NCBI GenBank assembly: GCA_964347265.1
Contig: CAYFXV010000001.1
Location: forward strand, 14,397 to 78,396
Length of the DNA stretch: 64,000 bases
From: an uncultured archaeon
GTDB lineage: Archaea > Aenigmatarchaeota > Aenigmatarchaeia > Aenigmatarchaeales > Aenigmatarchaeaceae
Direction: 5' to 3'
Part shown: in pieces, positions 5,123-50,501 of the stretch
How positions within the stretch are numbered: position 1 is the first letter of the stretch
Layout: each line of letters opens with the position of its first letter
Program-made: the position numbers and the translations under genes
Notes under the pieces: generated by a model
What the model was told of the DNA's origin: nothing
Database searches by the model: none
Seen by the model: the letters and a program-made list of their open reading frames with translations, nothing else

Positions 5123-6268
5123 ATGAAGGTACTGATGCTTGGTTGGGAATTCCCACCAGCCAAAACTGGAGGCTTAGGTACCCATTGCTATGAACTTGTT
5201 AAAAATTTAAGTAAAAGAGGCGTTAGTGTTCTACTATTAATTCCAAAAAGAACAGGGAATAAAAAACATAATATACCAAATGTAGAAATAATAGAAGTAG
5301 GTTCTGTTGCCTTAAACCCTTATAATACAACAAAACCTGATGATAAATTTGAAAAAGGTTATGGATGGAACTTCTTTGAAGAAGTTAGAGCTTTTAACAA
5401 AAGATGCGTTGAAATAGCAAAAAACAAGAAATTCGATGTTGTTCATTGTCATGATTGGATGACAATAGATGCTGGAATTAAAATTAAAAAAACAACAGGA
5501 AAACCTCTAGTTTTCACTGTTCACTCAACAGAATATGATAGAACAGCTTATATCTATCCTATGAAATTTATAATTGATATTGAGAAAGGGGGGATTCAAA
5601 AAGCAGATTTGGTTATAACAGTTAGCAAAGGTATGAAAAAACAATTAATAGAGAAATATAATGCTGAAGAGAAAAAGATTATAGTAATATATAATGGAAT
5701 AAATCCCTCTAAATATTTTGGATTGATTAAGAAAGGTAATAAAGGAATTGTCCTTTTCTTAGGAAGGCTAACAAATCAAAAAGGACCTTATTTCTTTTTA
5801 CATACAGCAAAAAAGGTTTTAGAAAAAAGGAAAGATATCATGTTCATAGTTGCTGGTCAGGGAGAACAGATGCCAGAACTAATTAGAATTGCAATTGGAT
5901 TAGGTATTATGGATAATGTTGTTTTTACTGGTTATTTAACCGAAGAAGAGCTTTTACAAGCTTATTATATGGCTGATGTTTATGTTATGCCATCAGTAGC
6001 AGAACCATTTGGAATTACAGCATTAGAGGCAATTGCTTCAGGAACTCCTGTTATTGTTTCTAAAAATGCTGGTGTTGCAGAAAAAATATTGCATTGTTTT
6101 AAAGTGGATTTCTGGGACACCCATGAAATGGCTAATAAAATAATATGCTTATTGAAATACCCCGTTCTGGGAGAATGTATGAGAAAAAATTCTTATAAGG
6201 AGATAAGAAACTTTGGATGGGATAGAGTAGCTGAACAAACAATATCAGTTTATAGGAGAGCTATATGA
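5123..6268 (+). CDS. GT-B glycosyltransferase. It is probably a small archaeal (GT5/GT4-type) glycogen synthase.
   Basis: 381 aa. N-terminal MKVLMLGWEFPPAKTGGLGTH resembles the Pyrococcus glycogen synthase N-terminus. The C-terminal E-x7-E region is PSVAEPFGITALEAIASGTPVIV. Confidence 0.6.
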   Translation: MKVLMLGWEFPPAKTGGLGTHCYELVKNLSKRGVSVLLLIPKRTGNKKHNIPNVEIIEVGSVALNPYNTTKPDDKFEKGYGWNFFEEVRAFNKRCVEIAKNKKFDVVHCHDWMTIDAGIKIKKTTGKPLVFTVHSTEYDRTAYIYPMKFIIDIEKGGIQKADLVITVSKGMKKQLIEKYNAEEKKIIVIYNGINPSKYFGLIKKGNKGIVLFLGRLTNQKGPYFFLHTAKKVLEKRKDIMFIVAGQGEQMPELIRIAIGLGIMDNVVFTGYLTEEELLQAYYMADVYVMPSVAEPFGITALEAIASGTPVIVSKNAGVAEKILHCFKVDFWDTHEMANKIICLLKYPVLGECMRKNSYKEIRNFGWDRVAEQTISVYRRAI

Positions 6269-7440
6269 CATCGCTTTGTTTTTATTTTCAGGTTCACCAA
6301 CCAATGAGATTAAATAGATTTTCTATCTTTACTAAAGGTTCTCCTTATTTTGATGAAGAAAGAAACAAAGCGTATTTAAAAAAAGTTTCAAATAAATGTT
6401 ATTTACCAACTAACAAACTTCTTTTAGATCTAATAAATGAATATGAGAAAAAATTCAAAATTGCCTTTAGCTTAACTGGAGTTTTTGTAGAGCAATGTAA
6501 AAAATATGCACCTGAAGTTTTAGAATCTTTTAAAGAATTAACCAAGACTGGAAACGTTGAGTTTTTAAATGAAACTTATTATCATTCTTTAGCAGTCTTA
6601 TTTTCTGAAAAGGAATTTAAAGAACAAATAAAACTTCATAGGAAAATGATATTAGAATTGTTTAACCAAAAACCAAAAATTTTTAGAAATACTGAAGCAA
6701 TGTATTCAAACAGTATTGCCAAACTAATTGAAAAATTAGGATATAGAGGAATAATAACAGAAGGTCATGAAAGTATTCTAGGGTGGAGATCACCTAATTA
6801 CTTGTACTATCCAAATGGTTGTAAAAAAATTTCAGCCTTATTGAGGAACTATAAATTAAGTGATGATATTGGTTTTAGGTTTTCTGCTCGATGGTGGGAA
6901 GAATATCCACTGACTGCTGATAAATATTCGATATGGTTATCAAAATGTGAAGGTCATTGTATTAATGTATTCATTGATTATGAAACATTTGGAGAACATC
7001 AATGGGAAGATACAGGAATATTTAATTTCTTAAAATACTTACCATCTGAAATTTCTAAATATCCAAGTCTTGATTTTAAAACTCCATCTGAAATTATTAA
7101 ATCATATAAACCTGTTGGAGTCATAGATGTTCCACATACAATTTCTTGGGCAGATGTCCAAAGAGATCTTTCAGCCTGGCTTGAGAATGAAATGCAAAAA
7201 CTTGCTTTTGAACAAATGGCAAAACTTGAAGAACATGTTAAGAAAAACCCAGAATTGTTGCATACATGGAGATTACTTCAAACTTCTGATCATTTTTATT
7301 ATATGTGTACTAAGTGGTTTGCTGATGGTGATGTTCACAAATATTTTAATCCTTATAATTCTCCTTATGATGCATTTATTAACTTTATGAACATTTTACA
7401 AGACCTAAGAAGAAAGTTGGGTTTAAATGAAAGTAGATGA
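6265..7440 (+). CDS. GH57-family glycoside hydrolase (alpha-amylase, 4-alpha-glucanotransferase or branching-enzyme-like).
   Basis: 391 aa. N-terminal FYFQVHQPMR matches the GH57 region-I HQP signature. It overlaps the upstream GT gene by 4 nt, which suggests an operon. Confidence 0.5.
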   Translation: MTSLCFYFQVHQPMRLNRFSIFTKGSPYFDEERNKAYLKKVSNKCYLPTNKLLLDLINEYEKKFKIAFSLTGVFVEQCKKYAPEVLESFKELTKTGNVEFLNETYYHSLAVLFSEKEFKEQIKLHRKMILELFNQKPKIFRNTEAMYSNSIAKLIEKLGYRGIITEGHESILGWRSPNYLYYPNGCKKISALLRNYKLSDDIGFRFSARWWEEYPLTADKYSIWLSKCEGHCINVFIDYETFGEHQWEDTGIFNFLKYLPSEISKYPSLDFKTPSEIIKSYKPVGVIDVPHTISWADVQRDLSAWLENEMQKLAFEQMAKLEEHVKKNPELLHTWRLLQTSDHFYYMCTKWFADGDVHKYFNPYNSPYDAFINFMNILQDLRRKLGLNESR

Positions 7441-9373: not shown

Positions 9374-9398
9374 CTAATTAATGATATGAGGTATTGTT

Positions 9399-17155: not shown

Positions 17156-18466
17156 ATGAGTATTTTTAGGGCTTATGATATTCGTGGAATTTATGGAAAA
17201 GATTTAACAGAAAAAGTCATGAAAAATATAGGAAAGGCTTTAGGAACTTTTCTTGGTGGTAACAAAAATGTTTGTGTTGGGTATGACACTAGAAAGTCAT
17301 CTAAAAAATTATTTGAAGCATTTTCTTCAGGATTAACTTCTACAGGTTGTAATGTTATATCTCTGGGATTAGTAGCAAACCCTATGCTATATTTTTATGC
17401 TTGGAAAAACAAAATTTTTGGAGCCTTAATAACTGCAAGCCATAATCCAAAAAATTGGAATGGTTTAAAAATGGTGAGACCAAATGGAGTCAGTTTCATA
17501 GAAGAGATTAAATTAATAGAGAATACATATGATTCCAAAAAATTTATTAAAGGTAGGGGAAGGATAACTAAAGCAGATGTATTTAAAAATTATAAAAAAT
17601 TTTTAGAAAGTAAGTTTGGGGTTATTAGAAAAAAAGTTGTCGTTGAGTGTTTTGGAGCAGCTGCTGTTACTGCTCTGCCAATTCTAAGAAGTTTAGGACT
17701 TGATGTAATAAGTCTTCATGACAAACCTGATGGAAATTTCTTTGGGTTTACGAGACCTGAACCAAAAGGAGAAAATCTAAATATGCTTAAAAAAGCTGTT
17801 AAAAGAGAAAAAGCTGATTTTGGAGTTGCATTTGATGGAGATGGTGACAGATCTGTTTTTGTTGATAACAGAGGTAGAGAACCTAATGTAAGCTCAGTAA
17901 TAGCAACTTTTGTTGATTATATATTAAAGAAAAAGAGGGGGTCTATTCTTTTAACAGCTGATTGTGCAAGCGAAATTGAAGATATTGCCAAAGAGTTGAG
18001 AGGAAAAACTATTTGGTGGAGAGTTGGACATGGATTTATAGAAGAAAAAAGTGCAAAAGAAAAAGTTTTATTTGCTGGAGAACAAAGTTCTCATCTTTAT
18101 TTCAATGAATTTTATCCATTCTCTGATGGCATACTTGCAACTATTTATTTAGCTAAAATACTTTCAGAAAGTAAAAAAACACTATCGGAATTACTTGACG
18201 AAATAAAAATACATCCAATAAAAAAATTATATATTAATGTTGGAAGCGATGAAAACAAAATAAGAATTATAGAAAGTTTAAAGAAAAGATATCCTAATGC
18301 TCTAGATATAATGGATGGCATTAAAATGAAATTAGATGATGTAGAATGGGTTCTAATAAGAGCAAGTCAAACAAATCCAGAAATAAATTTATGCGTGGAA
18401 GCAAGGAATGAAAACAGGATGAAAAACATTATTAGAGAATACATTAAATTAGTTAAACAAATTTAA
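17156..18466 (+). CDS. Phosphoglucomutase/phosphomannomutase (alpha-D-phosphohexomutase).
   Basis: 436 aa. It has the active-site loop TASHNPKNWNGLK (TASHNP), the metal-binding FDGDGDR, and overall domain order. Confidence 0.85.
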   Translation: MSIFRAYDIRGIYGKDLTEKVMKNIGKALGTFLGGNKNVCVGYDTRKSSKKLFEAFSSGLTSTGCNVISLGLVANPMLYFYAWKNKIFGALITASHNPKNWNGLKMVRPNGVSFIEEIKLIENTYDSKKFIKGRGRITKADVFKNYKKFLESKFGVIRKKVVVECFGAAAVTALPILRSLGLDVISLHDKPDGNFFGFTRPEPKGENLNMLKKAVKREKADFGVAFDGDGDRSVFVDNRGREPNVSSVIATFVDYILKKKRGSILLTADCASEIEDIAKELRGKTIWWRVGHGFIEEKSAKEKVLFAGEQSSHLYFNEFYPFSDGILATIYLAKILSESKKTLSELLDEIKIHPIKKLYINVGSDENKIRIIESLKKRYPNALDIMDGIKMKLDDVEWVLIRASQTNPEINLCVEARNENRMKNIIREYIKLVKQI

Positions 18467-20666: not shown

Positions 20667-21002
20667 ATGTTTATTTTCATGGTAACAATAGAAGACTTCC
20701 AAAAAATAGATATAAGAGTAGGTAAGGTAATTGAAATCAAAGATGCAGAAACAAAAAAACCAATGTACGTTCTTAAAGTGGATTTTGGAGAGTCGGGGAT
20801 TAAACAGTCTATAGCAGGTATAAAACCTAATTACGAAAAAGAAGAGCTTTTAAATAAAAAATTCATATTTGTAATTAATCTAGAACCTAAAAGAATAGCA
20901 AATATATTATCAGAGTGTATGATATTAGCAGCAGAAAAAGATGATAAAGTGGTCATTTTACAACCTGAAAGGGATATAGAAATTGGTTCAAAGATTTCAT
21001 AG
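20667..21002 (+). CDS. tRNA-binding domain protein (CsaA/Trbp111/EMAP-like).
   Basis: 111 aa. FQKIDIRVGKVIEIKD... matches the OB-fold tRNA-binding domain (Myf domain) signature. Confidence 0.7.
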   Translation: MFIFMVTIEDFQKIDIRVGKVIEIKDAETKKPMYVLKVDFGESGIKQSIAGIKPNYEKEELLNKKFIFVINLEPKRIANILSECMILAAEKDDKVVILQPERDIEIGSKIS

Positions 21003-21009
21003 TGATGGA

Positions 21010-21552
21010 ATGGTTGATTTATTTGTAGAATTTGTAAAATCTTTATTAATTATTTTTCCAGCTTATGCTGCTAATGGATTTCCTCCCTTAGCTAAAGGTG
21101 AAAAACCCATGGATTTAAAAAGAAAATGGTTTGACAATAGAAGAATATTTGGAGATGGGAAAACATTTGAAGGATTTGGTTTTGGTTTATTTTCAGGATT
21201 TGTAATTGGTGCTTTAGAAGCTTATCTTTATCCTGATCTTAATGCTTATGCAATGTTTTTTGGAGTCCAATTACCTCTAATTAATTTATTTATTGGTTTC
21301 ATGATAGCTTTAGGAGCGTTGTGTGGTGATTTGGCTGGAAGTTTTCTGAAAAGAAGGTTTAAATTAAAAAGAGGTGCAGATGTTCCATTATTAGACCAAT
21401 GGAATTTCATTATAGGAGCTGTTTTATTTACTTTTTGGTTTACTGAAATAACAATCTGGATGTTTTTAATAATGCTTTTAATAACACCAATATTTCATAG
21501 GATAGCTAATATAATTGCGCATAAAATAAGAGTAAAAAAAGAGCCGTGGTAA
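21010..21552 (+). CDS. carS: CDP-archaeol synthase (CarS).
   Basis: IFPAYAANGFPPLAKGEKPMDLKRKWFDNRRIFGDGKTFEGF matches the CarS/DUF46 signature. I chose the start at the second Met; the track ORF begins at 20983. Confidence 0.75.
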   Translation: MVDLFVEFVKSLLIIFPAYAANGFPPLAKGEKPMDLKRKWFDNRRIFGDGKTFEGFGFGLFSGFVIGALEAYLYPDLNAYAMFFGVQLPLINLFIGFMIALGALCGDLAGSFLKRRFKLKRGADVPLLDQWNFIIGAVLFTFWFTEITIWMFLIMLLITPIFHRIANIIAHKIRVKKEPW

Positions 21553-21553
21553 A

Positions 21554-22237
21554 ATGAAAATAGATTGTCACTGTCATACAATTTACAGCAAACATTGGTT
21601 TTGGGGATTTGATGCTATAAACACGCCCTTGGAAATGATAAAAGTTGCAATAAAAAAAGGTATGGATGGATTAGCAATAACAGACCATGACACAGTAAAA
21701 GGAAGTTTAGTTGGAAAAAAAGTAGCAAAAAGATTTAAAAATTTTATTATAATAACTGGTTCTGAAATAAAAACAAAGGAAGGAGAAATAATTGGTTTAG
21801 ATATAAAAGAAAATATTCCAATAAACCTAAGCATTGGAGAAGCTATAGAAAAAATTCATGATTTAGGAGGTATAGCAGTAGCTCCGCACCCCTTCGGAAG
21901 CTATGTTTTTAGAAAATGTGCTCAAGAAAATGCTTTAAAAGCAGACGCAATAGAAGTTTATAACTCAACTTTAACAAAAAAACAAAATAACAAAGCTTTG
22001 CGTTTAGCAAAAAAATTTAAAAAATCTTTTACAGCTGGGAGTGATGCTCATTCTGCAAGAGAAGTTGGAAATGCTGGAATAATAGTTAATGGAAATCCTA
22101 TAGACTCAATTTTAAAAAACAAAGTAAAAATTTTTGGAAGACATACAAGCATATTAAGAATAGCTGGCACAATATCTAAAAAATTCATTAGATCTATTGA
22201 ATGGAGAATAACAGGTGGAAGGAGAAAATATAGTTAA
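21554..22237 (+). CDS. PHP-domain metal-dependent phosphoesterase.
   Basis: 227 aa. MKIDCHCHTIYSKH and GSDAHS histidine motifs are typical of PHP. Confidence 0.75.
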   Translation: MKIDCHCHTIYSKHWFWGFDAINTPLEMIKVAIKKGMDGLAITDHDTVKGSLVGKKVAKRFKNFIIITGSEIKTKEGEIIGLDIKENIPINLSIGEAIEKIHDLGGIAVAPHPFGSYVFRKCAQENALKADAIEVYNSTLTKKQNNKALRLAKKFKKSFTAGSDAHSAREVGNAGIIVNGNPIDSILKNKVKIFGRHTSILRIAGTISKKFIRSIEWRITGGRRKYS

Positions 22238-22245
22238 AATTTGTT

Positions 22246-22734
22246 TCAGAAAAATTGTAAAATCCAATTTATTCCGTAAAATCCTCCATAAGCAAGGACT
22301 AAAGCCATTATAGTTTTTCCTATGAAACTTGCCAAAAGAAATTTCTTAAATGGATACCTCAAAGTTCCACCAATTATGCCAACTATATCATCTGGAAGAG
22401 GTGTTGCAGCGAATAATACTATTATAAAAAAACCACCATATTTTTTAAACTTTTTTTCCCATTTTTTAATATCTTTCTTATATTTCTTATTTATTATTTT
22501 TCTTCCTCCTAAACCTAAAACATAACCAACTATTTCTCCTATTGCTTCACCTAATCCAGCTAGAATTCCAACTAGAAGAGGATCCAATATAGCACCAGCA
22601 GCAAAAACAATAATATCAGTAGGAAGAATAAATATTATAGTAGAAGAACCTATTAAACTAACTAAGAAAACTCCTAAGTAACCATAAGTTTGGACCAAAG
22701 ACGTAAAAAATTCTAAAATCATTAAAAACACCAA
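22246..22734 (-). CDS. DedA/VTT-domain membrane protein.
   Basis: 162 aa with TM helices and the PLPDDIVGIIGG motif typical of DedA. Confidence 0.65.
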   Translation of the reverse strand: MVFLMILEFFTSLVQTYGYLGVFLVSLIGSSTIIFILPTDIIVFAAGAILDPLLVGILAGLGEAIGEIVGYVLGLGGRKIINKKYKKDIKKWEKKFKKYGGFFIIVLFAATPLPDDIVGIIGGTLRYPFKKFLLASFIGKTIMALVLAYGGFYGINWILQFF

Positions 22735-22765
22735 TAATATATTTTAAGCATTATAACATAATATT

Positions 22766-23365
22766 ATGCTTTATAAAAAAAGAAAATACTTTAAGGAGTT
22801 AAGTAAAAATTTTGGTCGTGTTTTTAGTAAATTCCCTCTCTCTCCAAACCAATGGACAATTTCAAGTTTGATTTTAGCTATAATACTTGTTTATTTTTTA
22901 ATCAATCAAAATTTTTTAATTTCCTTTATTGTTGGCATTTTCACTGTTTCTATTGATATGATAGATGGTGCTGTTGCAAGAGTAACTAAAAGAGCAACAA
23001 AATTTGGAGCTTATTTAGATACTATAATTGATAGATTTATAGAATTTTTTACTATACTTGGCCTATTTTTTGTAGACTATCCTAATTTTATTTTTACTTC
23101 AAAAACTTGGTTAATGGTTTTACTTTTTGGTTCTTTGATGTCATCATATTCAAAACCTGCTGCTCTTGAAAAGAACTTAATTAAAAAGGAATTAAAGGGC
23201 GGCGGAATTCTAGAACATACAGATAGATTAATTTTATTTCTAATTATAATTTTAATATCTAATTTTTCATTGGAGTATGCAAATTATTTAATTGTTTTAA
23301 CTTCGATTCTAACATTGGTATCATTTATTCAAAGATTTTTTATTGTAACAAAAAGATATATATAA
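22766..23365 (+). CDS. CDP-alcohol phosphatidyltransferase (archaetidyl-serine/inositol-phosphate-synthase type).
   Basis: 199 aa. DMIDGAVARVTKRATKFGAYLDTIIDR matches D-G-x2-A-R-x8-G-x3-D-x3-D. Confidence 0.8.
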   Translation: MLYKKRKYFKELSKNFGRVFSKFPLSPNQWTISSLILAIILVYFLINQNFLISFIVGIFTVSIDMIDGAVARVTKRATKFGAYLDTIIDRFIEFFTILGLFFVDYPNFIFTSKTWLMVLLFGSLMSSYSKPAALEKNLIKKELKGGGILEHTDRLILFLIIILISNFSLEYANYLIVLTSILTLVSFIQRFFIVTKRYI

Positions 23366-23993: not shown

Positions 23994-24836
23994 ATGTTAG
24001 AAGAATTCATAAATGAAAATTTCTTAATTCCATTATGTCATTATTATACTCCAGTTGGAACAATAAGTTATGGCTTAATTATGGTTTTAGCAGTTATAGG
24101 AACTTACAAACTTCTAAAATATTTAAAAATAAAAATAGATAAAAAATTCTTTATCGGACTTATAACTTTTATAGTATATGGCGGTTGGACAAGAGCTTTA
24201 AGAGATCATAAATTAGGTATTTATCAAAGTAATATTTTTTGTTCGCCACCTATTTACTTTTTTATATTTTTCATAGCTCTAGCTTCTTTATTACTAGGAA
24301 TTTCAATAGAAAAAATAACTAAGAAGAAGAAACGTAAAATTTCTTATGAAAAAATAATGTTTGTAATAGGTTTATGTTTTTTATTGTATAATGCAACTTT
24401 AACTAACATAAAAAACTTTTTTGCATTTTCCTCTATTTTATTATTGGTTGGTTTTTGGTCTTTAGTTTTTTTGGGTATACACAAAATAAAACCGAAATTA
24501 TTATCATTACAAAATGCTGGAATAATAGTTTCACATTTGTTAGATGCAAGCTCAACCTTCATAACACTTTCTTTCTTTGGTTATTGTGAACAACATATCT
24601 TACCAGGTGTTTTAACAGGAGCATATTGTGATGCAAAAAGCTTACCAAATTATTTAATTTTACCATTTAACCCGTGGGTAATGTTTCCATTAAAAATAAT
24701 TGTGGTTTGGATTGTTTTAGCATTAATTGATAGATCTAAAGAGGATATTTTCTTAAAAAGGTTTTTAAAAATCGTAATTTTGATATTAGGGCTAGCATTG
24801 GGCATAAGAGATTTTCTTACGGTTTCTATGCTCTAA
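23994..24836 (+). CDS. Polytopic membrane protein (hypothetical, DUF63-like).
   Basis: 280 aa with multiple TM helices and conserved Cys/His. Confidence 0.4.
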   Translation: MLEEFINENFLIPLCHYYTPVGTISYGLIMVLAVIGTYKLLKYLKIKIDKKFFIGLITFIVYGGWTRALRDHKLGIYQSNIFCSPPIYFFIFFIALASLLLGISIEKITKKKKRKISYEKIMFVIGLCFLLYNATLTNIKNFFAFSSILLLVGFWSLVFLGIHKIKPKLLSLQNAGIIVSHLLDASSTFITLSFFGYCEQHILPGVLTGAYCDAKSLPNYLILPFNPWVMFPLKIIVVWIVLALIDRSKEDIFLKRFLKIVILILGLALGIRDFLTVSML

Positions 24837-24874: not shown

Positions 24875-26116
24875 ATGATGTATCCTATAGATGTGGTATA
24901 TTTGGTATTCGTCTTCATAACATTGTATTTTTCTATATTATTTTTTCTATTATTTTTAAGAAACAAAAGATTAATTAAAAGAATACCTAAACTTACAAAA
25001 CATCCTTCTGTAAGCATAATTATACCAGCTTATAACGAAGAAAATGTCATAGGTAAAACAATTGAAAACTTGAAAAAGCTGATTTATCCGAAAAATAAAC
25101 TTGAAATAATAGTAGTGAATGATGGTTCTAGTGATAAAACTGGACAAATAGCAAGAAGTTTTAAGGGAGTAAAGGTCTTTGATAAAGTTAATCAAGGTAA
25201 AAAAGCATATGCACTTAATTTTGGATTAAAAAGAGCTAAAGGTGAAATAATAGGTTGTATAGATGCTGACTCTTTTCCACGATCAAATGCACTTTTAAAA
25301 TCAGTATCCTTTTTTAATGATCCAAAAGTAGGTGCTGTAACTACTTCTATTTTTGTAAAGGAACCAAAAAAATTGATCCAAAAACTTCAATATTTAGAAT
25401 ACATAATGATAGTTTGGTCTAGAAAATTACTTGAATTTTTAGATGGCATATATGTTACTCCAGGAGCAATGAGTTTGTATAGAAAAAGCGTTTTACAAGA
25501 AGTTGGTGGTTTTGATGAAAAGAATGTAACAGAAGATATAGAAATTGCTTGGAGAATACTTCGTAAAGGATATTTAATTAAGATGTCAACTCTTGCAAGA
25601 GTTTATACAAATGTTCCTTCATCATTTAAAAAATGGTGGAAACAAAGAATAAGATGGAATATAGGAGGTTTTCAAACATCAGTTAAACATATAGACACTA
25701 TTTTTAGATCCAGATTTAAAAGCTTAGGAATATTTGTTGTTCCATTTTTTATATTATCTTATCTTATTTCACTACTTGGTTTTGGAGTATTTGTATATGT
25801 TCTGGGCACAGCAGTCTATGGCTATTCTAATATTATTTTTAAATCATTTCTCTATAGTTCTAATCCTATTAAATATACAAACTTTATGGATTTTTTAATA
25901 CTTCCAAATGTTTTCACAATTTTTGGTTTAAGTATCTTTATTTTATCATTAGTTTGGATGTTCATAGGTTTGAGAGCTACAGGTATGAAAATAAAAGGAT
26001 TTAAAGGAATATATAAGATTTTAATTTACTTAAGTCTGTATATTACAATTTTCCCTATAGTTTTGATAGATTCTATATTTAAATTTGTGAGAGGTAAAGA
26101 TTATAGATGGCGATAA
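24875..26116 (+). CDS. Processive family-2 glycosyltransferase with NodC/HasA/cellulose-synthase-like architecture.
   Basis: 413 aa. N-terminal TM, GT-A domain (SIIIPAYNEE, VVNDGSSD, DADS) and the QRIRW motif (QxxRW of processive beta-glycan synthases), followed by C-terminal TM helices. Confidence 0.8.
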   Translation: MMYPIDVVYLVFVFITLYFSILFFLLFLRNKRLIKRIPKLTKHPSVSIIIPAYNEENVIGKTIENLKKLIYPKNKLEIIVVNDGSSDKTGQIARSFKGVKVFDKVNQGKKAYALNFGLKRAKGEIIGCIDADSFPRSNALLKSVSFFNDPKVGAVTTSIFVKEPKKLIQKLQYLEYIMIVWSRKLLEFLDGIYVTPGAMSLYRKSVLQEVGGFDEKNVTEDIEIAWRILRKGYLIKMSTLARVYTNVPSSFKKWWKQRIRWNIGGFQTSVKHIDTIFRSRFKSLGIFVVPFFILSYLISLLGFGVFVYVLGTAVYGYSNIIFKSFLYSSNPIKYTNFMDFLILPNVFTIFGLSIFILSLVWMFIGLRATGMKIKGFKGIYKILIYLSLYITIFPIVLIDSIFKFVRGKDYRWR

Positions 26117-26117
26117 A

Positions 26118-26771
26118 ATGCAAAGTGATATTTTAATAAAAACCACTTTTATAACAGTAGTTGTTTTTGTATTAGGTATACTTGTTGGTATCTGGTTAGA
26201 CAATGCAAGACTTGAAGATATAAAAGAAAGATTAGCTTTTATGGATATTGAATGGAACGACGCAAGATTACAAAGTGTATTATATCAAAATTTTATAAAC
26301 AGTACAGAGTCTTGTGAAAATGCTATTAATTCAAATTTAGATTTTAATGAGAAGATCTATAAAGAAGGTATAGAAATTGAAAGACGTGAAAATGTAAATA
26401 AATTTACTCCAGAAATAATGTCTGAAAAAAGAAGATATGCCTTATTGCAATTACAGTTTTGGTTAAACAGCATAAACTTGAAAGAATCATGTAAAGCTAA
26501 TTATAGTTCCATTGTATATTTTTACTCATTCTTTGATGAAAATGCAAAAATTAATCAAAAAATTCAGAGTACTATCTTGTCAGACTTGAAAGAAGAATGT
26601 GGAAATCAATTAATTCTAATACCACTTCCTTTTGATTTAAATATCTCCACAATAGAATTCATAAAATCAAATTACAAAATTAATTCTACTCCGTCTATTT
26701 TAATAAATGAAAGAACTGTTTTAGAAGGCATACAAAATAAAGAAAAAATTTTAGAATATATGAGCTGTTAA
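26118..26771 (+). CDS. Membrane-anchored protein translationally coupled to the GT2 synthase.
   Basis: 217 aa with an N-terminal TM. Its start is 2 nt after the GT2 stop. Unknown family. Confidence 0.45.
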   Translation: MQSDILIKTTFITVVVFVLGILVGIWLDNARLEDIKERLAFMDIEWNDARLQSVLYQNFINSTESCENAINSNLDFNEKIYKEGIEIERRENVNKFTPEIMSEKRRYALLQLQFWLNSINLKESCKANYSSIVYFYSFFDENAKINQKIQSTILSDLKEECGNQLILIPLPFDLNISTIEFIKSNYKINSTPSILINERTVLEGIQNKEKILEYMSC

Positions 26772-27379
26772 GTCATTAAAACTAAAAGCATTTTATCAAC
26801 TGCTAAATCTAAATCAGTATACTTTCTATCGATTTCAGAAAAGTCTCTACCTTGTAAAATTATAAGATTATTATTAACTATTACAGACGTTTGGTTAGCA
26901 TAAGAAGGACCTAACAATAGTATTACAGGTTCTATTGGAGTTGGAATTAATTCATCGGTTGAGTTTATAGGTAATGACTTAAAACATCTTACCTCTTCAT
27001 CTTCAAAAAATAACATACAAGAACTACCGTCTACATCTTTAAAACTTCCTGTTTGACCTTTATAATAGTGTCTGTAAACTATTCCTAATTTATTTGTTGT
27101 TTCAAAGCTTGAGGCAACATAAAAAGCATTTTCAGTTTCATTGGGAATGAAAGCTATGTAAATTTTATAAACTTCTGGATTTAGTAAAACATCTTTAATA
27201 GCATCTTCATTAGGATAAACTGGTGTTTTATTGGCCTCAAACAAATTTGCTCTAAAATGTCTTATATCACCTTCATAATACAAAGAATAAGGATCTTTAA
27301 AGGTTCCTAAATTATTTAATAGGAAAACAAAAGCAATAACAATTATTGCTATTATTACTATAATATAATTTTTTTCCAT
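26768..27379 (-). CDS. Secreted/membrane-anchored hypothetical protein.
   Basis: 203 aa with an N-terminal hydrophobic anchor. Confidence 0.4.
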   Translation of the reverse strand: MEKNYIIVIIAIIVIAFVFLLNNLGTFKDPYSLYYEGDIRHFRANLFEANKTPVYPNEDAIKDVLLNPEVYKIYIAFIPNETENAFYVASSFETTNKLGIVYRHYYKGQTGSFKDVDGSSCMLFFEDEEVRCFKSLPINSTDELIPTPIEPVILLLGPSYANQTSVIVNNNLIILQGRDFSEIDRKYTDLDLAVDKMLLVLMT

Positions 27380-27394
27380 ATACTAACCTCTGAT

Positions 27395-27462
27395 TCTCGA
27401 GAAATAAAAAGAAAAAGAAAAAAGGGGTAGCTGATTTCTTCAAACTATTCTATTAAGAATAG
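27395..27462 (-). terminator. Putative terminator of the S-layer-like gene: a hairpin overlapping the stop codon followed by T-tracts.
   Basis: Inverted repeat CTATTCT-atta-AGAATAG at 27445..27462 spans the stop. On the transcribed strand it is followed by CCCCTTTTTCTTTTTCTTTTT. Confidence 0.4.
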
Positions 27463-30239
27463 CTTGGAGATGCTACTGTTCCCGTAACAGTTACTTCAGC
27501 ACCTGCTTTTTGTGTGTCTGTTGCTCCTGGGAATCCAGTTTGGACAATTCTAGCTGCTAAGTCTGTATCTCCTGCTTCCCAACCGGCTATCAATAGAGCT
27601 GTCTTACCTGTTGCGAATTTGTCTGCAACAAGTTTTATCAAACCTGCATTCTCAGGTATTCCTGATGCAGCTCCACATGTATAGTCAGTATGACCCATGA
27701 CTTCAGCTGCTAGCTTGTTAATACAAGGTCCACCAACTATGACTAAATCATAGTTTGATTTGTCTGAGCTTGTTACTTCGGTATCAAGTTTAACAACATC
27801 TGATGTAATTGGTAATACAACATCTGTTGTTATTACGCCTCCAACTCCACCACTTGTTATTACACCTGTTGGAGTCAACACATAAACATTTCCATATGTG
27901 AACACATCTGGATAGCTTATTGTTGCTGAACCTCCAAGGTTTGAAGTCAAGTGATCTGATAGAGTACCGTAAGTTGTCATACCCTTGTATTGTGTTGATG
28001 TTCCTAAGAGCGGAACGTCTGCATAAGCGCTGTCATCTGAATAAAGTGAGGTAGCTATGCTTACTTTGTTGTTTGTACTATCCCATGATACTGGTAGATA
28101 CAACCAATTATGTGTTTGTCCGCCTTGTTGTGCTTCTTCAACTAAGATAAAACCTGTACCATCATACCAAGCACTTGTACTTGTTCCTAGTTTAACTGTG
28201 TAGTTCATAGCAGCACTAGTTCTTCCAACTCTTACTACATAATCAATGTGGTTCTTTGCAAATGTTCCACTTCCATAAGCTCCGTCTTCAACTGGTTCTC
28301 CAATTGCTGTTTCATTAGTCCAAGTTCCTGCTGTAGGACCATATGTAGCAACTGTTGTTGTATTGTCAGCATTTCTAACAAGTCTTATACCTGCAAATCC
28401 TAGTTGTGGATAAATCCAGGTTCCTGCGGTCATTGCACCTGAAGAATAGTTTGTATAGAAATACAAACCACCTTGACCTGTTGTTATTAACTTTGGTGCA
28501 AGGAAAGAGTATTCTCTACCAAGAGGTCCTGGTGTAGTAAAATCTGTGTATGCTGTTCCTGCAATATATCCATCTCCATTTAGGTCAACATTGATAGTTT
28601 TAGATGTATTGCTTATAAGGTAAACTCTATAAATGTTTCCATCAACTATCAAATTTGCTATGGCTCCATTTGAAGTTTGGTTACCTGTTGCTGTAATTGA
28701 ATTTCCTGACTCATCTGTAAATGTAAATTCACCAGTTGCTGCTGTATAAGCTGTAAATACCATTGTGTGGGAGAATCCTCCTTTCTGTATCACGAAAAAG
28801 TCTTGATCAACTGCGCTAATGTTTGCTCCCTCATCAAATACAACATCTCTCCAATCGTTTTCAGTGCCTGATGCTGTTACGGGTGCTGATGCCCATCTCC
28901 ATGTTACTCCGTCTGATGAATAGACTGAGAACATTTGTTCTTCAGCATCTGCAGCATTCTTGTATTTTAAGAACATGTTGTATCCAGAAGGATTGAATGT
29001 TATTGATTGTCTGTTTGCTGCATCTGTAAAATCTGGAATAATACTGTTGAATTTTATGTCAAAGGTTGATGCAAAGGAATCTGCCACTTTATCTCCTGCA
29101 GATAACCACTTATCTAAAGTTGGAGTATAGGTTAAAGAGAATACGGACCAACCACCTGATACACTTGAAGTCATTCCTGATACTAATTCAGATACGACTG
29201 ATGTACCTTTTGTTACTGTTCCTGCAGAACTTACTTTAACTTTGTCTGCGCCTATTGCTAATGTTGCATAATCTGCTGCTCCTGTCTTACCTTGGAAGAC
29301 TTTTATTGCAGCAATTTGTGTTCCATCAGACAAAGTTTTGGTTTCTCCTGCCTTTAATGTAAATGATTCACCATTTACATCCCCAATGGCAGAATAATAT
29401 GTTGATGTTCCTATAGTTTGTGCAGCAACTCCTGTCAAAGTAACTGTATAGTCTTTTCCTTCAGATGTTATTGTTTGTGGTGCTCCTGTTTCTACAGTAA
29501 CTAAATTCTTACCTCCAAGTAAGGTCATAGTTGAGATTGTATCAGTTGAACTACCATATGTGGCATCTGATATAACGAAATCTTTTCCTAAAATACTTAT
29601 AGTTGTACCTTGAATTACAGCCTGCAATAGTGTATTACTGGTAACACCTGATAAAGAGACTGGTGTTGAAAATGTTAGTTTGTATGTATAAAGTGGATAA
29701 GATGCTGGAACTTTAAAGGAAATTCTTGGCGTATTTTCAGTTGTAGGTCTTTCAAATTTTATTTGTGCGCCATTGCTACCTAAATCAGTCTCACCCAATA
29801 AATACAAATACTGTTTATATTGGTAAGCTCCACCAGATGCTGATGAATAAGTTTTGGTTCCTAACAAAGATGGTATATCTGAAGTTGTTATAATTCCCTT
29901 AACATTTTGCGGGTTTGTATAAGGTGTTAAAAATATACCAGATGTTTCTATTTTTGCTCCACCTGTAACACTTTCTCCTGCAATTGTTGTTGTTACATCT
30001 GTGGTTGTCTTAGCATTTGCTGCCATATTAACAGCTACATCAACAGCACCTGCAACATCAGCTGGTGCGGCTCTTGCCCCGATTACAAACAGTGGAAAAC
30101 TAACTGTTGAATCTGTTACTGTTATCATATCTGATATTTTTCCTAATTCTGTTACAGTAGATGCTAACACTGGACTCATTAATGACATTCCTGTCATAAG
30201 TGCTGAACCTGCTATCGCAGCCAATTTTTTAAATTGCAT
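27453..30239 (-). CDS. Large secreted Thr/Ser/Gly-rich surface protein, an S-layer protein candidate.
   Basis: 928 aa with signal peptide MQFKKLAAIAGSALMTGMSLMSPVLAS and low-complexity T/S/G-rich beta-type sequence. It has a strong SD (GGAGG) and a GC-rich leader. The internal + ORF 30001..30264 is spurious. Confidence 0.5.
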   Translation of the reverse strand: MQFKKLAAIAGSALMTGMSLMSPVLASTVTELGKISDMITVTDSTVSFPLFVIGARAAPADVAGAVDVAVNMAANAKTTTDVTTTIAGESVTGGAKIETSGIFLTPYTNPQNVKGIITTSDIPSLLGTKTYSSASGGAYQYKQYLYLLGETDLGSNGAQIKFERPTTENTPRISFKVPASYPLYTYKLTFSTPVSLSGVTSNTLLQAVIQGTTISILGKDFVISDATYGSSTDTISTMTLLGGKNLVTVETGAPQTITSEGKDYTVTLTGVAAQTIGTSTYYSAIGDVNGESFTLKAGETKTLSDGTQIAAIKVFQGKTGAADYATLAIGADKVKVSSAGTVTKGTSVVSELVSGMTSSVSGGWSVFSLTYTPTLDKWLSAGDKVADSFASTFDIKFNSIIPDFTDAANRQSITFNPSGYNMFLKYKNAADAEEQMFSVYSSDGVTWRWASAPVTASGTENDWRDVVFDEGANISAVDQDFFVIQKGGFSHTMVFTAYTAATGEFTFTDESGNSITATGNQTSNGAIANLIVDGNIYRVYLISNTSKTINVDLNGDGYIAGTAYTDFTTPGPLGREYSFLAPKLITTGQGGLYFYTNYSSGAMTAGTWIYPQLGFAGIRLVRNADNTTTVATYGPTAGTWTNETAIGEPVEDGAYGSGTFAKNHIDYVVRVGRTSAAMNYTVKLGTSTSAWYDGTGFILVEEAQQGGQTHNWLYLPVSWDSTNNKVSIATSLYSDDSAYADVPLLGTSTQYKGMTTYGTLSDHLTSNLGGSATISYPDVFTYGNVYVLTPTGVITSGGVGGVITTDVVLPITSDVVKLDTEVTSSDKSNYDLVIVGGPCINKLAAEVMGHTDYTCGAASGIPENAGLIKLVADKFATGKTALLIAGWEAGDTDLAARIVQTGFPGATDTQKAGAEVTVTGTVASPSYS

Positions 30240-38233: not shown

Positions 38234-39496
38234 ATGAAAATTTTTGCCGATTTACATTTACATAGTCATTATAGTAGGGCAACTTCTAATAAAATGAATA
38301 TAGAAAATCTGGAAAGATATGCAAAAATTAAAGGAATAAATCTTTTGGGAACCGGAGATTTTACACACCCTTCTTGGTTAGATGAATTGAAAAGAAGCTT
38401 AATAGAAGTTGGAAATACTGGTTTATTTCAATTTAAAGACAAAAGTATATATTTCATGCTTCAAGCAGAAGTTTCAAATATTTATAATCAAGATGAAAAA
38501 ACAAGAAAAATACATAATGTTATTTTAGCTCCTAGTTTTGAAATTGTAGAACAGATAAATGATTTTCTTAAAAACTATGGTAAATTGGCAAGTGATGGAA
38601 GACCTATTTTAACTAATATAAACTGTGCAGAACTTGTAGAGAGTTTGATTAATATTTCCAGAGATACAGTAATAATACCAGCACATATATGGACTCCTTG
38701 GTTCTCTTTATTTGGAAGCAAATCTGGTTTTGATTCAATAGAAGGATGCTTTAAAGATAAGACAAAACACGTATTTGCTTTAGAAACAGGCCTTTCTAGT
38801 GATCCTGCAATGAATTGGAGACTATCTTCATTAGATAATTTTGCATTGGTTTCAAATAGTGATAGTCATAGCCCATGGCCTAATAGATTGGGTAGAGAAT
38901 TAAATGTTTTTGATATTGAAATGAAATATAAAGACATAATAAATGCGATTAAAAATAAGAATCCTAAAGAATTTCTTTATACTGTTGAAGTTGATCCTTC
39001 TTATGGTAAGTATCATTGGGATGGTCATAGAAATTGTAATGTTTGTTTGAATCCTAAGGAATCAAGAAAATATCATGATATTTGTCCTGTTTGTGGAAAT
39101 CCTTTAACAATAGGTGTGGAACACAGGGTTGAAGAACTGGCAGACAGAAAAGAAGGTTTTGTTCCTAAAAATGCTATTGTTTTTAAAACTTTGCTCCCAT
39201 TATCAGAATTAATAGCACATATCTATAATACCCAACCTTTTTCTAAGAAAGTCTGGACAGAGTCTACAAAATTAATAAAGAGCTTTGACTCTGAATTAAA
39301 TGTTCTATTAAATGCTAATAGAGAAAATTTAAAACTTTTAGTTAATGAAAGACTTGTTGATTTAATAATAAAAAACAGAGAAGGAAAATTAAAGGTTCAA
39401 CCTGGATATGATGGAGTTTATGGAAAATTAATATTAGATGGAAAAATTTCTATTAAACAACCTCAAAAAAGAATTGATAGTTATATTAATAAATAA
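38234..39496 (+). CDS. PHP-domain phosphoesterase with a C-terminal Zn-ribbon (archaeal TIGR00375-like family).
   Basis: 420 aa. N-terminal MKIFADLHLHSHYSRATS is the PHP His motif. Its Cys clusters are CNVCLNP...CPVCGNP. Confidence 0.6.
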   Translation: MKIFADLHLHSHYSRATSNKMNIENLERYAKIKGINLLGTGDFTHPSWLDELKRSLIEVGNTGLFQFKDKSIYFMLQAEVSNIYNQDEKTRKIHNVILAPSFEIVEQINDFLKNYGKLASDGRPILTNINCAELVESLINISRDTVIIPAHIWTPWFSLFGSKSGFDSIEGCFKDKTKHVFALETGLSSDPAMNWRLSSLDNFALVSNSDSHSPWPNRLGRELNVFDIEMKYKDIINAIKNKNPKEFLYTVEVDPSYGKYHWDGHRNCNVCLNPKESRKYHDICPVCGNPLTIGVEHRVEELADRKEGFVPKNAIVFKTLLPLSELIAHIYNTQPFSKKVWTESTKLIKSFDSELNVLLNANRENLKLLVNERLVDLIIKNREGKLKVQPGYDGVYGKLILDGKISIKQPQKRIDSYINK

Positions 39497-39545
39497 TAAA
39501 AATGAGAGTAGAGAAATGTTTCTCTACTTTTAAAACAGCGAAAAA

Positions 39546-40514
39546 CTACTTGCCTGAAACTGTTACGCTAGCTGTTCTTTCAACCCAATAACCATAGTCT
39601 GCTGTTACTTTGATCTGATCTGACCTAAATGTTGAAGGTATGGATGTTACAGTTACATCACAAGTTATTGTTGCTTCACCTTTTGTTAATTCAAATGTAT
39701 CGGCACAATCTTCCTCACCACTCCATCCAGGTACATCTGATACATCTATGTCTATCCAGTTTAATTGTGTTTCTGCATCAATTTCATAATCAGTTCCATC
39801 ATAAGCAACTGCACCTTGTAGGTAAACTGTTCCACCACCTACGCTACTAGCTTTTATTTGTAGTGTAAATGTTTGATCACCATCAACAATTACATTTGTT
39901 GGTTTTACTGTCACATATAATGCAACAGGACCTCCTGTTGAAGTGAATGAATTTTGATTTAATGATCTTCCTGCTGCTTTTGCTGCATCAGCTTCTGCCT
40001 CATCATAAATCCATACATTACCTGTAACAGTAGTTGTGTAATCGTAATAAAGTCTTCCTATGAATACATCAGTTCTTGATATTCCTGGATCAATAGCTGT
40101 AGGTGAGGTTAAATACCAGTTTACTGTCTTCTCGTCTGCTGGGACATCTCTAACTGGGTCATACGGATCCATATCCTTTCCCATAGTTTGATGAGTTGTA
40201 GTGGTAGTACCTCTTTCAGTCCAATATAAACCACCGTCTGGTGAGAAGTCACTTCGAAGAGCTGAACCTTGCAACACAGCTAATGCACTACCATCTGGTA
40301 CACTTGAACCACCTTTGTTAATAATTGTCATTGTAATTTTTGCTGAACGGTTGTTATAAACTTCTGTATTATCTATAGAGAATTCTTCTACTACTAAACC
40401 GCCTCCAGCAAAAACTGTAGGTGATGTTATCCATGGTATTGATATTGGTCCGCCCTGAATACACCCTGCTATAAAGATTATAGCCAGCGTAGCTAACAAA
40501 ATCTCTTTTTTCAT
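39546..40514 (-). CDS. Secreted lipoprotein-like protein, paralog A.
   Basis: 322 aa with signal peptide plus lipobox-like LAIIFIAGCIQG. It is a paralog of 40623..41582 and shares ETQLNW, the KAAGR block and overall layout with it. Confidence 0.5.
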   Translation of the reverse strand: MKKEILLATLAIIFIAGCIQGGPISIPWITSPTVFAGGGLVVEEFSIDNTEVYNNRSAKITMTIINKGGSSVPDGSALAVLQGSALRSDFSPDGGLYWTERGTTTTTHQTMGKDMDPYDPVRDVPADEKTVNWYLTSPTAIDPGISRTDVFIGRLYYDYTTTVTGNVWIYDEAEADAAKAAGRSLNQNSFTSTGGPVALYVTVKPTNVIVDGDQTFTLQIKASSVGGGTVYLQGAVAYDGTDYEIDAETQLNWIDIDVSDVPGWSGEEDCADTFELTKGEATITCDVTVTSIPSTFRSDQIKVTADYGYWVERTASVTVSGK

Positions 40515-40622
40515 TTAAAAATCACCTTTTATTTCTATCATAAAATTGTAAGGCGTATATTTATAGATTTAGGTTAGGGAGTTGTACATTGCTTACACTA
40601 CAAAAAATTTGCATTTTAGAAT

Positions 40623-41582: not shown

Positions 41583-41689
41583 ATTTTCACTGATATAAAA
41601 TTGTAAAGTACGTATTTATAGTTAGCGGTCATTATTACACTTTATAAAAACAATGTGGATTAACAAATTAAAAGAATAAATATTCAGTA

Positions 41690-43881: not shown

Positions 43882-43921
43882 TAAATCTCCACTTTATATT
43901 TTATTTTTTAATTTAAAGATT

Positions 43922-48415: not shown

Positions 48416-49171
48416 ATGATTGACAAACTTTTAAGAGCTTATTTAATTGAGAAAAAACCTTGGTATGGAATTGTATTAGGTTTTCTTTTTGCAAGCTTAG
48501 GAATAATATTTGCTTTTCTTATTTTTAGAACAGAACCATCATTTCCTGCAGTTTTTTTAACAACTTTAGCAGCAGCACCTTTAATTGTTAAATTAATAAA
48601 AAGTGAAAGACAAAAAGAAAACATATTAAGAAGACATGAAAATATTATTGGAGTTTATTTTTATTTGTTCTTTGGAATGACCATTGCATTTGCTTTATTT
48701 AATGCTTTTTTACCAACTGAAATTTCTAGTTCTATTTTTAGTGAACAGCTAAACAAATTTTCTGCAGGTTATTTTACAGGACAATCTCAACTATTTTTTG
48801 AAATAATTTTAAATAATCTTGGCTTAGTTTTATTCTTTTTCATATTATCTTTGTTTTATGGTTCTGGTTCAATGTTTCTTTTATCTTGGAACTCGTCCAT
48901 ACTTGGAGTAATGTGGGGCAATATATTGAAGATTTCACTTTCTTTAATGGATCCACTTGTTTTTGTTCAAAATGTTTTTTTCATATTTCCTTTCTTATTA
49001 CCTGAAGTTGAGGCTTATTTCTTAGCTTCAATAGCTGGTGGTATAGTTTCTGTAAACTTGGATAATAAGAAAAAATTAGAAACTGCAATGAATGATTCTT
49101 TGATGTTTTTAGTATTATCTATAGTGTTGATAATAATTGCTGGTGGTATAGAAACTATTTTGATTGCATAA
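48416..49171 (+). CDS. Polytopic membrane protein (SpoIIM/DUF95-like).
   Basis: 251 aa with six or more TM helices. Confidence 0.35.
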   Translation: MIDKLLRAYLIEKKPWYGIVLGFLFASLGIIFAFLIFRTEPSFPAVFLTTLAAAPLIVKLIKSERQKENILRRHENIIGVYFYLFFGMTIAFALFNAFLPTEISSSIFSEQLNKFSAGYFTGQSQLFFEIILNNLGLVLFFFILSLFYGSGSMFLLSWNSSILGVMWGNILKISLSLMDPLVFVQNVFFIFPFLLPEVEAYFLASIAGGIVSVNLDNKKKLETAMNDSLMFLVLSIVLIIIAGGIETILIA

Positions 49172-50501
49172 ATTTATGTCAGAATTATTAATTATGATTA
49201 TGAAAAAATGGATTTTTTTATTATTCTCATTAACGTTTGTTTTTGTTACAATAAATTTGACAAGGGTTGAAGCTATAACAAACCCTACCCCTGATCCTGA
49301 ATGTGATAGAAAAGAACCAGGAGAAAGCTTAAATGACGGAATTTGTAATTTAACTTGTCAATATATCGAATGCAATCCTGATGGAACTAGTGATTATGAA
49401 GTTAAGGTATTCAGGGAAGATTTCGATTATCTTGATAGCGATATATGGGCTTTTGAAGGAGTTGGACCCTTAGTTGAAAGTGGGAATTTAGTTGTGCACG
49501 TACTAGCATGGCAAACAAATTATGATACAAAGATTTTCACTGGAGAAAAATTTGGAAAAGCAATTTATGAGTTTAAAATTAAAATGACTGAAAAAGTTCA
49601 AGATGTTGCATCATTCTTTTTCTTGTATGAAGGACAAGAAACTGGATGTAAACCAGATTCGTATCCATTTTGTCAGGAAATAGATGTTGAATTTTTCGGT
49701 TACGTTCCCGAAGGATCAAACCCAAGAATAGATGATAGAAATTCAATTGTTTTTGCAAGTAGAAATTCTACTGGTCATTGGAGTTGGCATATAGTATCAG
49801 CTCCAAGCAACTTGGACGATGAGAATTGGCATTTATTCAGATTAGAATATAGAACAGATTCGATAGTACTTACAGTTGATGATTCAGTAATTGGAACTAT
49901 TACAGATATCATTCCGGATAAAAATATGCACATATATTTTGGGGCATATGGAAGTACCCATGAAAATTCGTATACCATGTATGTCGCTTATGTTGAAGTA
50001 TTTAAATTATTTAATGTATGTAAATTAGAATGTGGTGCTGATTCTGAGTGTGATGAAATAATACCAGGGTGTAGTGGTTGTAATGATACTTGCCGATATT
50101 GCTCTGGTGACGTAGATGGTGACGGTGATGTTGATTATAATGATTTCATTATTCTTGCAGGGGCTTATGGCTCGAGCAGCGGTCAACCAGCCTATGATGT
50201 GTGTGCAGACTTTGATAAAGACGGTGATGTTGACTATGATGATTTCATGGTTCTTGCAGGAAACTATGGGAAGAGTTGTCTAGGATCTACAGGAACGTTT
50301 ACAGGTCCTTCTAGAATAACAGAGAGCATGATGAAGAAATTAGAAAAAGAGAAAAAACCAAAAGCATACTTTACATTGCCTTATTTGTTAGAAGTTGTGA
50401 TTCCGTTTGTTAGTTTTGTAATTATAGCCTTGATTGAGATTTTTGTTTTAGGATTGATAATTAGAAAATTGCATGAGATGTATCCTAAGAAAAAGAAATA
50501 A
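49164..50501 (+). CDS. Secreted GH16-family glycoside hydrolase (beta-glucanase/laminarinase-like) with a dockerin-like module and a C-terminal TM anchor.
   Basis: 445 aa with a signal peptide. The GH16 catalytic motif is QEIDVEF (E-x-D-x-x-E). It has two Ca-binding dockerin-like repeats, DVDGDGDVDYNDFIILAGAYG and DFDKDGDVDYDDFMVLAGNYG, and a terminal hydrophobic helix followed by KKKK. Confidence 0.65.
   Translation: MHKFMSELLIMIMKKWIFLLFSLTFVFVTINLTRVEAITNPTPDPECDRKEPGESLNDGICNLTCQYIECNPDGTSDYEVKVFREDFDYLDSDIWAFEGVGPLVESGNLVVHVLAWQTNYDTKIFTGEKFGKAIYEFKIKMTEKVQDVASFFFLYEGQETGCKPDSYPFCQEIDVEFFGYVPEGSNPRIDDRNSIVFASRNSTGHWSWHIVSAPSNLDDENWHLFRLEYRTDSIVLTVDDSVIGTITDIIPDKNMHIYFGAYGSTHENSYTMYVAYVEVFKLFNVCKLECGADSECDEIIPGCSGCNDTCRYCSGDVDGDGDVDYNDFIILAGAYGSSSGQPAYDVCADFDKDGDVDYDDFMVLAGNYGKSCLGSTGTFTGPSRITESMMKKLEKEKKPKAYFTLPYLLEVVIPFVSFVIIALIEIFVLGLIIRKLHEMYPKKKK

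Follow-up and report, generated by a model that had tools for sequence, protein, structure and literature searches.

What do two adjacent genes for membrane proteins make at the surface of a DPANN archaeon? The question is raised by a family 2 glycosyltransferase (GT2) gene and the small gene that follows it in a 64,000-nt stretch of DNA from an uncultured member of the Aenigmatarchaeota (contig CAYFXV010000001.1, positions 14,397 to 78,396; hereafter the window), which is AT-rich (GC-content of about 0.29). An earlier note, made from the sequence alone, had proposed that the GT2 and a coupled membrane partner make and export a beta-linked surface polysaccharide, and both open reading frames (ORFs) lie exactly where it had placed them. 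Our results, all of them from sequence and predicted structure, show that the two genes constitute a genuine functional module. We see an even chance that they encode a two-subunit, membrane-embedded, cellulose-synthase-like glycan synthase serving the cell envelope: the motifs and the fold of the GT2 are of the synthase type, and export of a β-glycan by the pair is plausible, though unproven. The two genes and their main features, including transmembrane (TM) segments, are as follows:

24875..26116, plus strand: GT2 glycosyltransferase of the CesA/PgaC-like, membrane-integrated type, 413 aa; ORF confirmed.
25262..25270, plus strand: DxD motif of the GT2 (D130-A-D132), without variation among 48 close homologues and with at least 95% conservation among 60 homologues from across DPANN.
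25529..25537, plus strand: TED motif of the GT2 (T219-E220-D221), presumed catalytic base region, invariant in the 48 homologues and aligned with the TED of E. coli BcsA.
25643..25657, plus strand: QxxRW motif of the GT2 (Q257-R-I-R-W261) on helix 251-271, with Q, R, R and W invariant and aligned with the QRIRW of BcsA.
26118..26771, plus strand: partner protein, 217 aa, predicted to consist of an N-in TM helix, a three-helix bundle on the outside and a thioredoxin-fold domain that lacks CxxC.
26139..26201, plus strand: TM helix of the partner with the motif F17-x-x-G20-x-x-x-G24, whose conservation was determined in 123 family representatives.
26499..26768, plus strand: thioredoxin-like domain of the partner (about residues 128-217) with the cis-proline P192 and a C161/C217 pair.

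The 413-aa protein was recognized by two GT2 families of Pfam (PF00535, 115 bits; PF13641, 106 bits). In an alignment of 48 homologues (47-85% identity), the residues D83/S85/D87, D130xD132, T219-E-D221 and Q257-R-x-R-W261 are invariant, and the D, DxD, TED and QxxRW motifs stay conserved in the 60 DPANN-wide homologues (about 33% identity). The catalytic signature of processive GT2 enzymes, D, DxD, (T/G)ED and QxxRW in a GT-A domain, is present, and judging from these motifs the protein is an inverting GT2 whose catalytic set (D/DxD/TED/QxxRW) is complete. Its AlphaFold2 model (pLDDT 90.2; pTM 0.89) presents a helix at residues 4-33, a GT-A core at 46-245, the QRIRW-bearing helix at 251-271 and three further helices at 283-326, 346-368 and 375-406, with one N-terminal and three C-terminal TM helices predicted in total. 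Alignment and model thus bear out the layout that had been described (N-terminal TM helix, GT-A motifs, QRIRW and C-terminal TM helices). The predicted fold superposes over about 360 of the 413 residues on cellulose and hyaluronan synthases and presents, as processive synthases do, a GT-A domain packed against interface and TM helices. The best structural match was PcManGT, a small mannosyltransferase of archaeal origin, with BcsA and hyaluronan synthase (HAS) almost as close; the GT2 aligns over more residues with BcsA and HAS than with PcManGT. When only the C-terminal TM half was searched against the PDB, no match was returned.

Sequence profiles place the enzyme nearest to PgaC. The best profile was that of PgaC/IcaA (TIGR03937), matched over nearly the full length with 190.8 bits, and this was the top family for all 48 members (best E-value 9e-63). 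True orthology to PgaC/IcaA was rejected, as the score falls far short of the equivalog cut-off (422.3 bits) and no PgaD, IcaD or PgaB was found. A profile of the archaeal family scored E. coli PgaC at 180 bits, B. anthracis HasA at 98, E. coli BcsA at 93 and NodC at 77, with ArnC reaching 44 bits over its N-terminal half only; against structures, it scored PcManGT at 106 bits, BcsA at 93 and a ceramide glucosyltransferase at 45. Plasmid-encoded bacterial relatives rank alike: PgaC-like (31-34% identity), then BcsA, HasA and NodC. A neighbor-joining tree with PgaC, BcsA, HasA, NodC and ArnC as references placed the archaeal clade beside PgaC and an Enterococcus glycosyltransferase; its deep nodes are unsupported, and we take it only as consistent with the ranking of the profile scores. 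The GT21 family was not the best match (PF13506, 54.6 bits, versus 115 and 106 bits for the two GT2 families), and we found no full-length similarity to polyprenyl-phosphate monosaccharide synthases (DPM1, GtrB, ArnC, AglJ/AglD type). The two outcomes that would have spoken against a processive enzyme according to the note did not occur: the protein does not group with dolichyl-phosphate (Dol-P) or AglD-type enzymes, and QxxRW is present in the alignment.

The partner belongs to no Pfam or NCBIfam family, PDB sequence searches with it returned only noise, and it did not match PgaD or IcaD. In the window it is 100% identical to GTN40_00655 of a Candidatus Aenigmarchaeota (DPANN) metagenome-assembled genome (MAG). 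An exhaustive profile search recovered relatives in 1,078 clusters at 50% identity (587 at E ≤ 1e-10), nearly all of them 210-235 aa long; among those with a name are members from Nanoarchaeota, Ca. Tiddalikarchaeum, Aenigmatarchaeota, Altiarchaeia and MAGs labelled Woesearchaeota and Micrarchaeota. The model presents an N-in TM helix with a GxxxG motif, followed by an outward three-helix bundle and a thioredoxin fold. The net charge of +1.5 before the helix and -1.5 after it likewise suggests an N-in/C-out topology. The membrane anchor claimed for this protein corresponds to a single TM helix, whose residues F17, G20 and G24 are conserved in 80%, 89% and 83% of the 123 representatives. The secondary structure of the C-terminal domain (strand 130-136, helix 141-164, strand 165-171, helix 177-185, strands 193-196 and 200-203, helix 208-212) matches the β-α-β-α-β-β-α fold of the thioredoxin superfamily with its cis-proline loop, and P192 is 93% conserved. 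According to the model, therefore, the partner is a single-pass N-in/C-out membrane protein with an outward three-helix stalk and a thioredoxin-fold head. The CxxC expected after strand β1 is absent from the window partner, which presents YSFFDENAK there (FFDENA replacing CxxC); in 45 of the 123 full-length representatives, CxxC occupies precisely the active-site position of thioredoxins, and the conserved cis-proline comes after it. This Aenigmatarchaeota lineage has lost the CxxC, so the head probably serves here as a structural or binding element rather than a redox-active one. The partner of the window subfamily is strongly conserved despite this loss.

We further analyzed how consistently the two genes occur together. 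A GT2 of this family was found near the partner in all 27 partner-encoding GTDB species loci, usually directly upstream; at three of them (L013, L015 and L034) the order is a divergent GT2, then the S-layer gene, then the partner. A scan with a 10-sequence alignment (A5) yielded 80 metagenome loci with CxxC-type partners, 63 of which had enough flanking sequence to judge: the GT2 lies immediately upstream on the same strand in 60 and nearby in the other 3, and it is absent from none. Among 77 non-redundant junctions, the gap is 2 nt or less in 59 and the genes overlap in 41, counts that are slightly biased since the start codon nearest to the GT2 stop was picked; in database gene calls, the two genes are separated by 0, +1 and +7 nt or overlap by 7, 7, 7, 7 and 11 nt. 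In the window, the GT2 stop codon TAA (26114-26116) and the partner ATG (26118-26120) are separated by 1 nt, in keeping with the close spacing reported before. Translational coupling had been deduced from this spacing. However, many same-strand neighbours in this genome are 1-4 nt apart or overlap, and since tight spacing is the genome-wide norm, it is weak evidence for coupling by itself; the real evidence is the conserved adjacency. At a locus of an Altiarchaeia MAG (L007, 5001-10108), three GT2 paralogues and two partner paralogues are clustered with the pairing kept; the partner paralogues are 20-23% identical, and the divergent one (8166-8873, minus strand) carries CKTC at the thioredoxin active-site position. 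Because the adjacency is conserved across loci and survives the duplication of paralogues, the pair is a real module.

Literature searches on archaeal GT2 enzymes with QxxRW, S-layer glycosyltransferases of Aenigmarchaeota, PgaC in archaea and DPANN thioredoxin/glycosyltransferase clusters turned up neither the pairing nor the partner family; Römling 2022 (PMC10086821) mentions that DPANN possess short GT2 enzymes resembling PgaC/BcsA, without the partner. At one locus with the GT2 and the partner (L124, 1-3132), the neighbours are GyrB and a 382-aa monomeric-type PheRS with an FDX-ACB domain. From these neighbours, the module may not be restricted to archaea.

Beyond the partner, two genes on the opposite strand recur with the pair:

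26768..27379, minus strand: P203, a conserved exported, membrane-anchored protein of about 200 aa (203 aa here), convergent with the partner and overlapping its stop by 4 nt.
27453..30239, minus strand: S-layer-like protein, 928 aa (PF05124, 56.9 bits).

The pair had been described as lying next to the S-layer-like gene; the PF05124 match agrees with this identity, but the P203 gene lies between them. Of the 27 genome loci, 21 have P203 near the pair, as do several metagenome loci; several homologues present a lipobox-like signal, no Pfam family matched, and a PDB sequence search returned noise only. S-layer homologues were detected at 17 of these 27 loci. The GT2, partner, P203 and S-layer genes occur in at least three different orders, and both neighbours also recur in CxxC-type loci. 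The S-layer gene has a higher GC-content than its surroundings (0.37 versus 0.27-0.30), and its product carries no C-terminal TM anchor. P203 and the partner are candidate membrane-anchored stalks for tethering the S-layer.

One or two multi-TM proteins of 450-510 aa flank the pair in 32 of the 80 CxxC-type loci and in four Aenigmatarchaeota loci (among them L005 1853-3334 and 3264-4751; L066 410-1861 and 1809-3254; L012 7666-9042; L028 4070-5467; and others in L075, L086 and L070). Their profile matches human STT3A (E 1e-19), AglB C-terminal domains, ArnT and a GPI mannosyltransferase, and 13 of 24 members have a PMT_2 match; the first loop contains WDE/DxD-type motifs and the WWDYG motif is degenerate. 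On these similarities, they are GT-C-fold transferases of the STT3/PMT-like type. None was found in the 64-kb window. At L075, a sugar-1-phosphate nucleotidyltransferase and a UDP-glucose/GDP-mannose dehydrogenase (8030-9615) lie about 3 kb from a GT-C/GT-C/GT2/partner operon, which hints at a uronic-acid-containing product in that lineage. Overall, the context of the pair points to extracytoplasmic glycoconjugate assembly tied to the S-layer.

A DUF63 protein is encoded directly upstream of the GT2 (23994-24836, plus strand). The current Pfam name of this family is AliA_AliB, after recently identified archaeal lipoprotein lipidation enzymes (PMC12462473). The upstream block (20983-23365) comprises CarS, a PHP phosphoesterase, DedA/VTT, a CDP-alcohol phosphatidyltransferase, PTH2 and AliA, and thereby brings lipid head-group genes together with the envelope module. 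The same CarS-to-AliA block is present at L003, L043 and L045, and relatives add an inositol-1-P synthase; it is not conserved in other contexts of the pair.

If the two genes encode a glycan synthase, the GT2 would use a cytoplasmic nucleotide sugar, elongate a β-linked glycan at the QxxRW/TED site and pass it outward through its four TM helices. The conserved GxxxG helix of the partner would pack on these helices, as the BcsB anchor does with BcsA or PgaD/IcaD with PgaC/IcaA, while the stalk and the thioredoxin-like head would receive the glycan as it emerges beneath the S-layer, or guide or tether it there. The locking of an outward protein to the GT2 argues for a product that emerges at the enzyme. 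By profile, a PNAG-like β-GlcNAc polymer would be the closest analogy for this product.

Known synthases resemble the pair only in part. The best profile match corresponds to the poly-β-1,6-GlcNAc synthases PgaC-PgaD of E. coli and IcaA-IcaD of staphylococci (413 versus 441 aa); E. coli PgaC and the GT2 have the TED and QRxRW-x-x-GG motifs in common, and in pgaC-pgaD a small membrane partner gene also follows the catalytic gene with a junction of 1 nt, a likeness that is organisational only. PgaD/IcaD have two TM helices, whereas the partner here is unrelated and presents one TM helix and a 190-aa outward thioredoxin-fold domain. Neither a PgaB/IcaB deacetylase nor a PgaA porin is present here; no polysaccharide deacetylase is adjacent to the pair, PF01522 being found only as a secondary match on the GH57 at 6265..7440. 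PgaCD is controlled by c-di-GMP, a form of regulation that to our knowledge is not known from archaea. With eight TM helices and a PilZ domain, BcsA differs from the GT2 and its 1+3 predicted TM helices, and BcsB is a 779-aa protein (E. coli K-12) with a C-terminal anchor and carbohydrate-binding and flavodoxin-like domains, for which no sequence or fold relationship with the partner was found.

Alternatively, the GT2 could be a lipid-linked glycan transferase resembling PcManGT (Pyrobaculum calidifontis Pcal_0472; PDB 6yv7), a serious rival that we nevertheless regard as doubtful. It would add one or a few sugars to an acceptor linked to Dol-P; its TM half-tunnel would hold, and perhaps flip, the lipid carrier, AglB or a GT-C enzyme would then transfer the glycan to the S-layer protein, and the thioredoxin-like partner would act like Ost3/Ost6, holding cysteine-containing substrates. 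Two results speak in favour of the lipid-linked transferase: the top structural match of the GT2 is PcManGT, and GT-C genes neighbour the pair in other lineages. However, PcManGT presents ADD where the GT2 presents TED, and the HMMER alignment to it stops just before the QRxRW position, so that the GT2 family is closer in motifs to true synthases. The GT2 also has one TM helix more than PcManGT (four versus three), besides its longer alignment with BcsA and HAS. Gandini and colleagues reportedly found in 2020 that PcManGT uses GDP-Man, depends on Dol-P and is encoded in a cluster of several glycosyltransferases without a thioredoxin-like partner. Furthermore, the 64-kb window contains no GT-C gene, the GT-C neighbours at other loci have a degenerate STT3-like WWDYG, it is the GT2 and not the GT-C genes to which the partner is locked, and it is not obvious why a glycosyltransferase that works solely on the cytoplasmic face should need an outward subunit. 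Ost3/Ost6 (TUSC3/MagT1) carry a membrane-anchored, non-cytoplasmic thioredoxin-fold domain with CxxC on the eukaryotic oligosaccharyltransferase, and the relatives of the partner that carry CxxC and adjoin STT3-like GT-C genes resemble them in this respect. In Ost3/Ost6, though, a luminal thioredoxin domain precedes four TM helices, whereas here the TM helix is N-terminal and leads into a three-helix stalk with a small thioredoxin fold; the enzyme to which the partner is coupled is a GT2 and not a GT-C, the window protein lacks CxxC, and no sequence similarity to Ost3/Ost6 was detected. On a wider scale, the module might be a DPANN-wide envelope machine that physically couples glycan synthesis and export, via its outward thioredoxin-fold subunit on a helical stalk, to S-layer assembly, either by making an archaeal counterpart of S-layer-anchoring secondary cell wall polymers or with an Ost3/6-like redox or chaperone subunit that ties the delivery of glycan to the folding and glycosylation of the S-layer protein; in the lineages that keep the CxxC it could be a redox-gated polysaccharide synthase. 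We find this wider reading unlikely. Some S-layer loci of Gram-positive bacteria include genes for secondary cell wall polymers, as with csaB beside sap/eag in Bacillus anthracis. The likeness to such loci lies in the physical linkage of an S-layer gene with genes for making or modifying an envelope glycan; here there are no SLH domains and no pyruvyl transferase, and the enzyme class is another. We know of no archaeal S-layer-anchoring polymer of this kind.

Two other explanations are less likely than either a synthase or a lipid-linked transferase. The GT2 could be a membrane glycolipid synthase, performing GT21-like or processive glycosylation of archaeol-type lipids (mono- or diglycosyl archaeol) and remodelling scavenged host lipids. 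The GT21 score (PF13506, 54.6 bits), the match of the family profile to ceramide glucosyltransferase structures (E 5.5e-11) and the position of the pair, in this lineage, in a block with CarS, CDP-alcohol phosphatidyltransferase, DedA/VTT and AliA/AliB would fit such a role. We give it very little credence: the similarity to GT21 is much weaker than that to PgaC, BcsA and HAS, the lipid genes are absent at L001, L005, L007, L008 and most metagenome loci while the S-layer gene and P203 recur, and an outward thioredoxin-fold partner would have no obvious role. It is also improbable to a high degree that the two proteins form no complex and merely share an operon, the partner being a general extracytoplasmic thiol-disulfide oxidoreductase or an S-layer stalk. 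Tight spacing throughout the genome, the three loci where the partner follows the S-layer gene with a divergent GT2, and the thioredoxin-like fold with an ancestral CxxC all agree with mere co-location. Yet the GT2 is present in 90 of 90 informative loci, the two genes stay paired through paralogue duplication and in several genomic contexts, the conserved GxxxG points to a specific packing of helices, and the conservation of the partner in the window subfamily after the loss of CxxC speaks against a function that is redox only.

DPANN archaea, with their very small genomes, live attached to host cells, and next to nothing is known of their surface chemistry. The wide retention of the pair, its operon linkage and its S-layer or STT3/PMT-like neighbours make it a strong candidate for a core envelope function, and this two-gene module offers a testable entry into how DPANN cells build or decorate their surface. 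If the two genes encode a glycan synthase, the outward thioredoxin fold would be an accessory subunit of a type new to cellulose-synthase-like enzymes. Should the partner prove to work together with glycosylation enzymes, it would be informative on how the eukaryotic oligosaccharyltransferase came by its thioredoxin-like subunits.

Elsewhere in the window, a run of ORFs of 310-774 aa (38234-46246; all on the minus strand except one on the plus strand) matches no Pfam family and presents a slightly higher GC-content; one of them (41690-42952) gave a weak intein-splicing match below the cut-off. A secreted GH16 β-glucanase had been reported at 49 kb. The protein at 49164..50501 (plus strand) indeed possesses the catalytic EIDVE motif and an N-terminal signal-like hydrophobic segment, but its Pfam score is marginal (23.3 bits versus a cut-off of 22), and since it also has a C-terminal TM-like hydrophobic segment, it looks surface-anchored rather than freely secreted; no link to the GT2-partner module was shown. 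The same protein contains dockerin-like DxDxDG repeats. Finally, a glycogen-type cluster (5123-11189) comprises a GT4/GT5 synthase, a GH57, a 648-aa ORF without assignment and a eukaryote-type glycogen synthase (PF05693), and a phosphogluco/phosphomannomutase is encoded at 17156-18466. Together, the cluster and the mutase indicate the presence of hexose-phosphate metabolism, and probably of nucleotide-sugar metabolism too.
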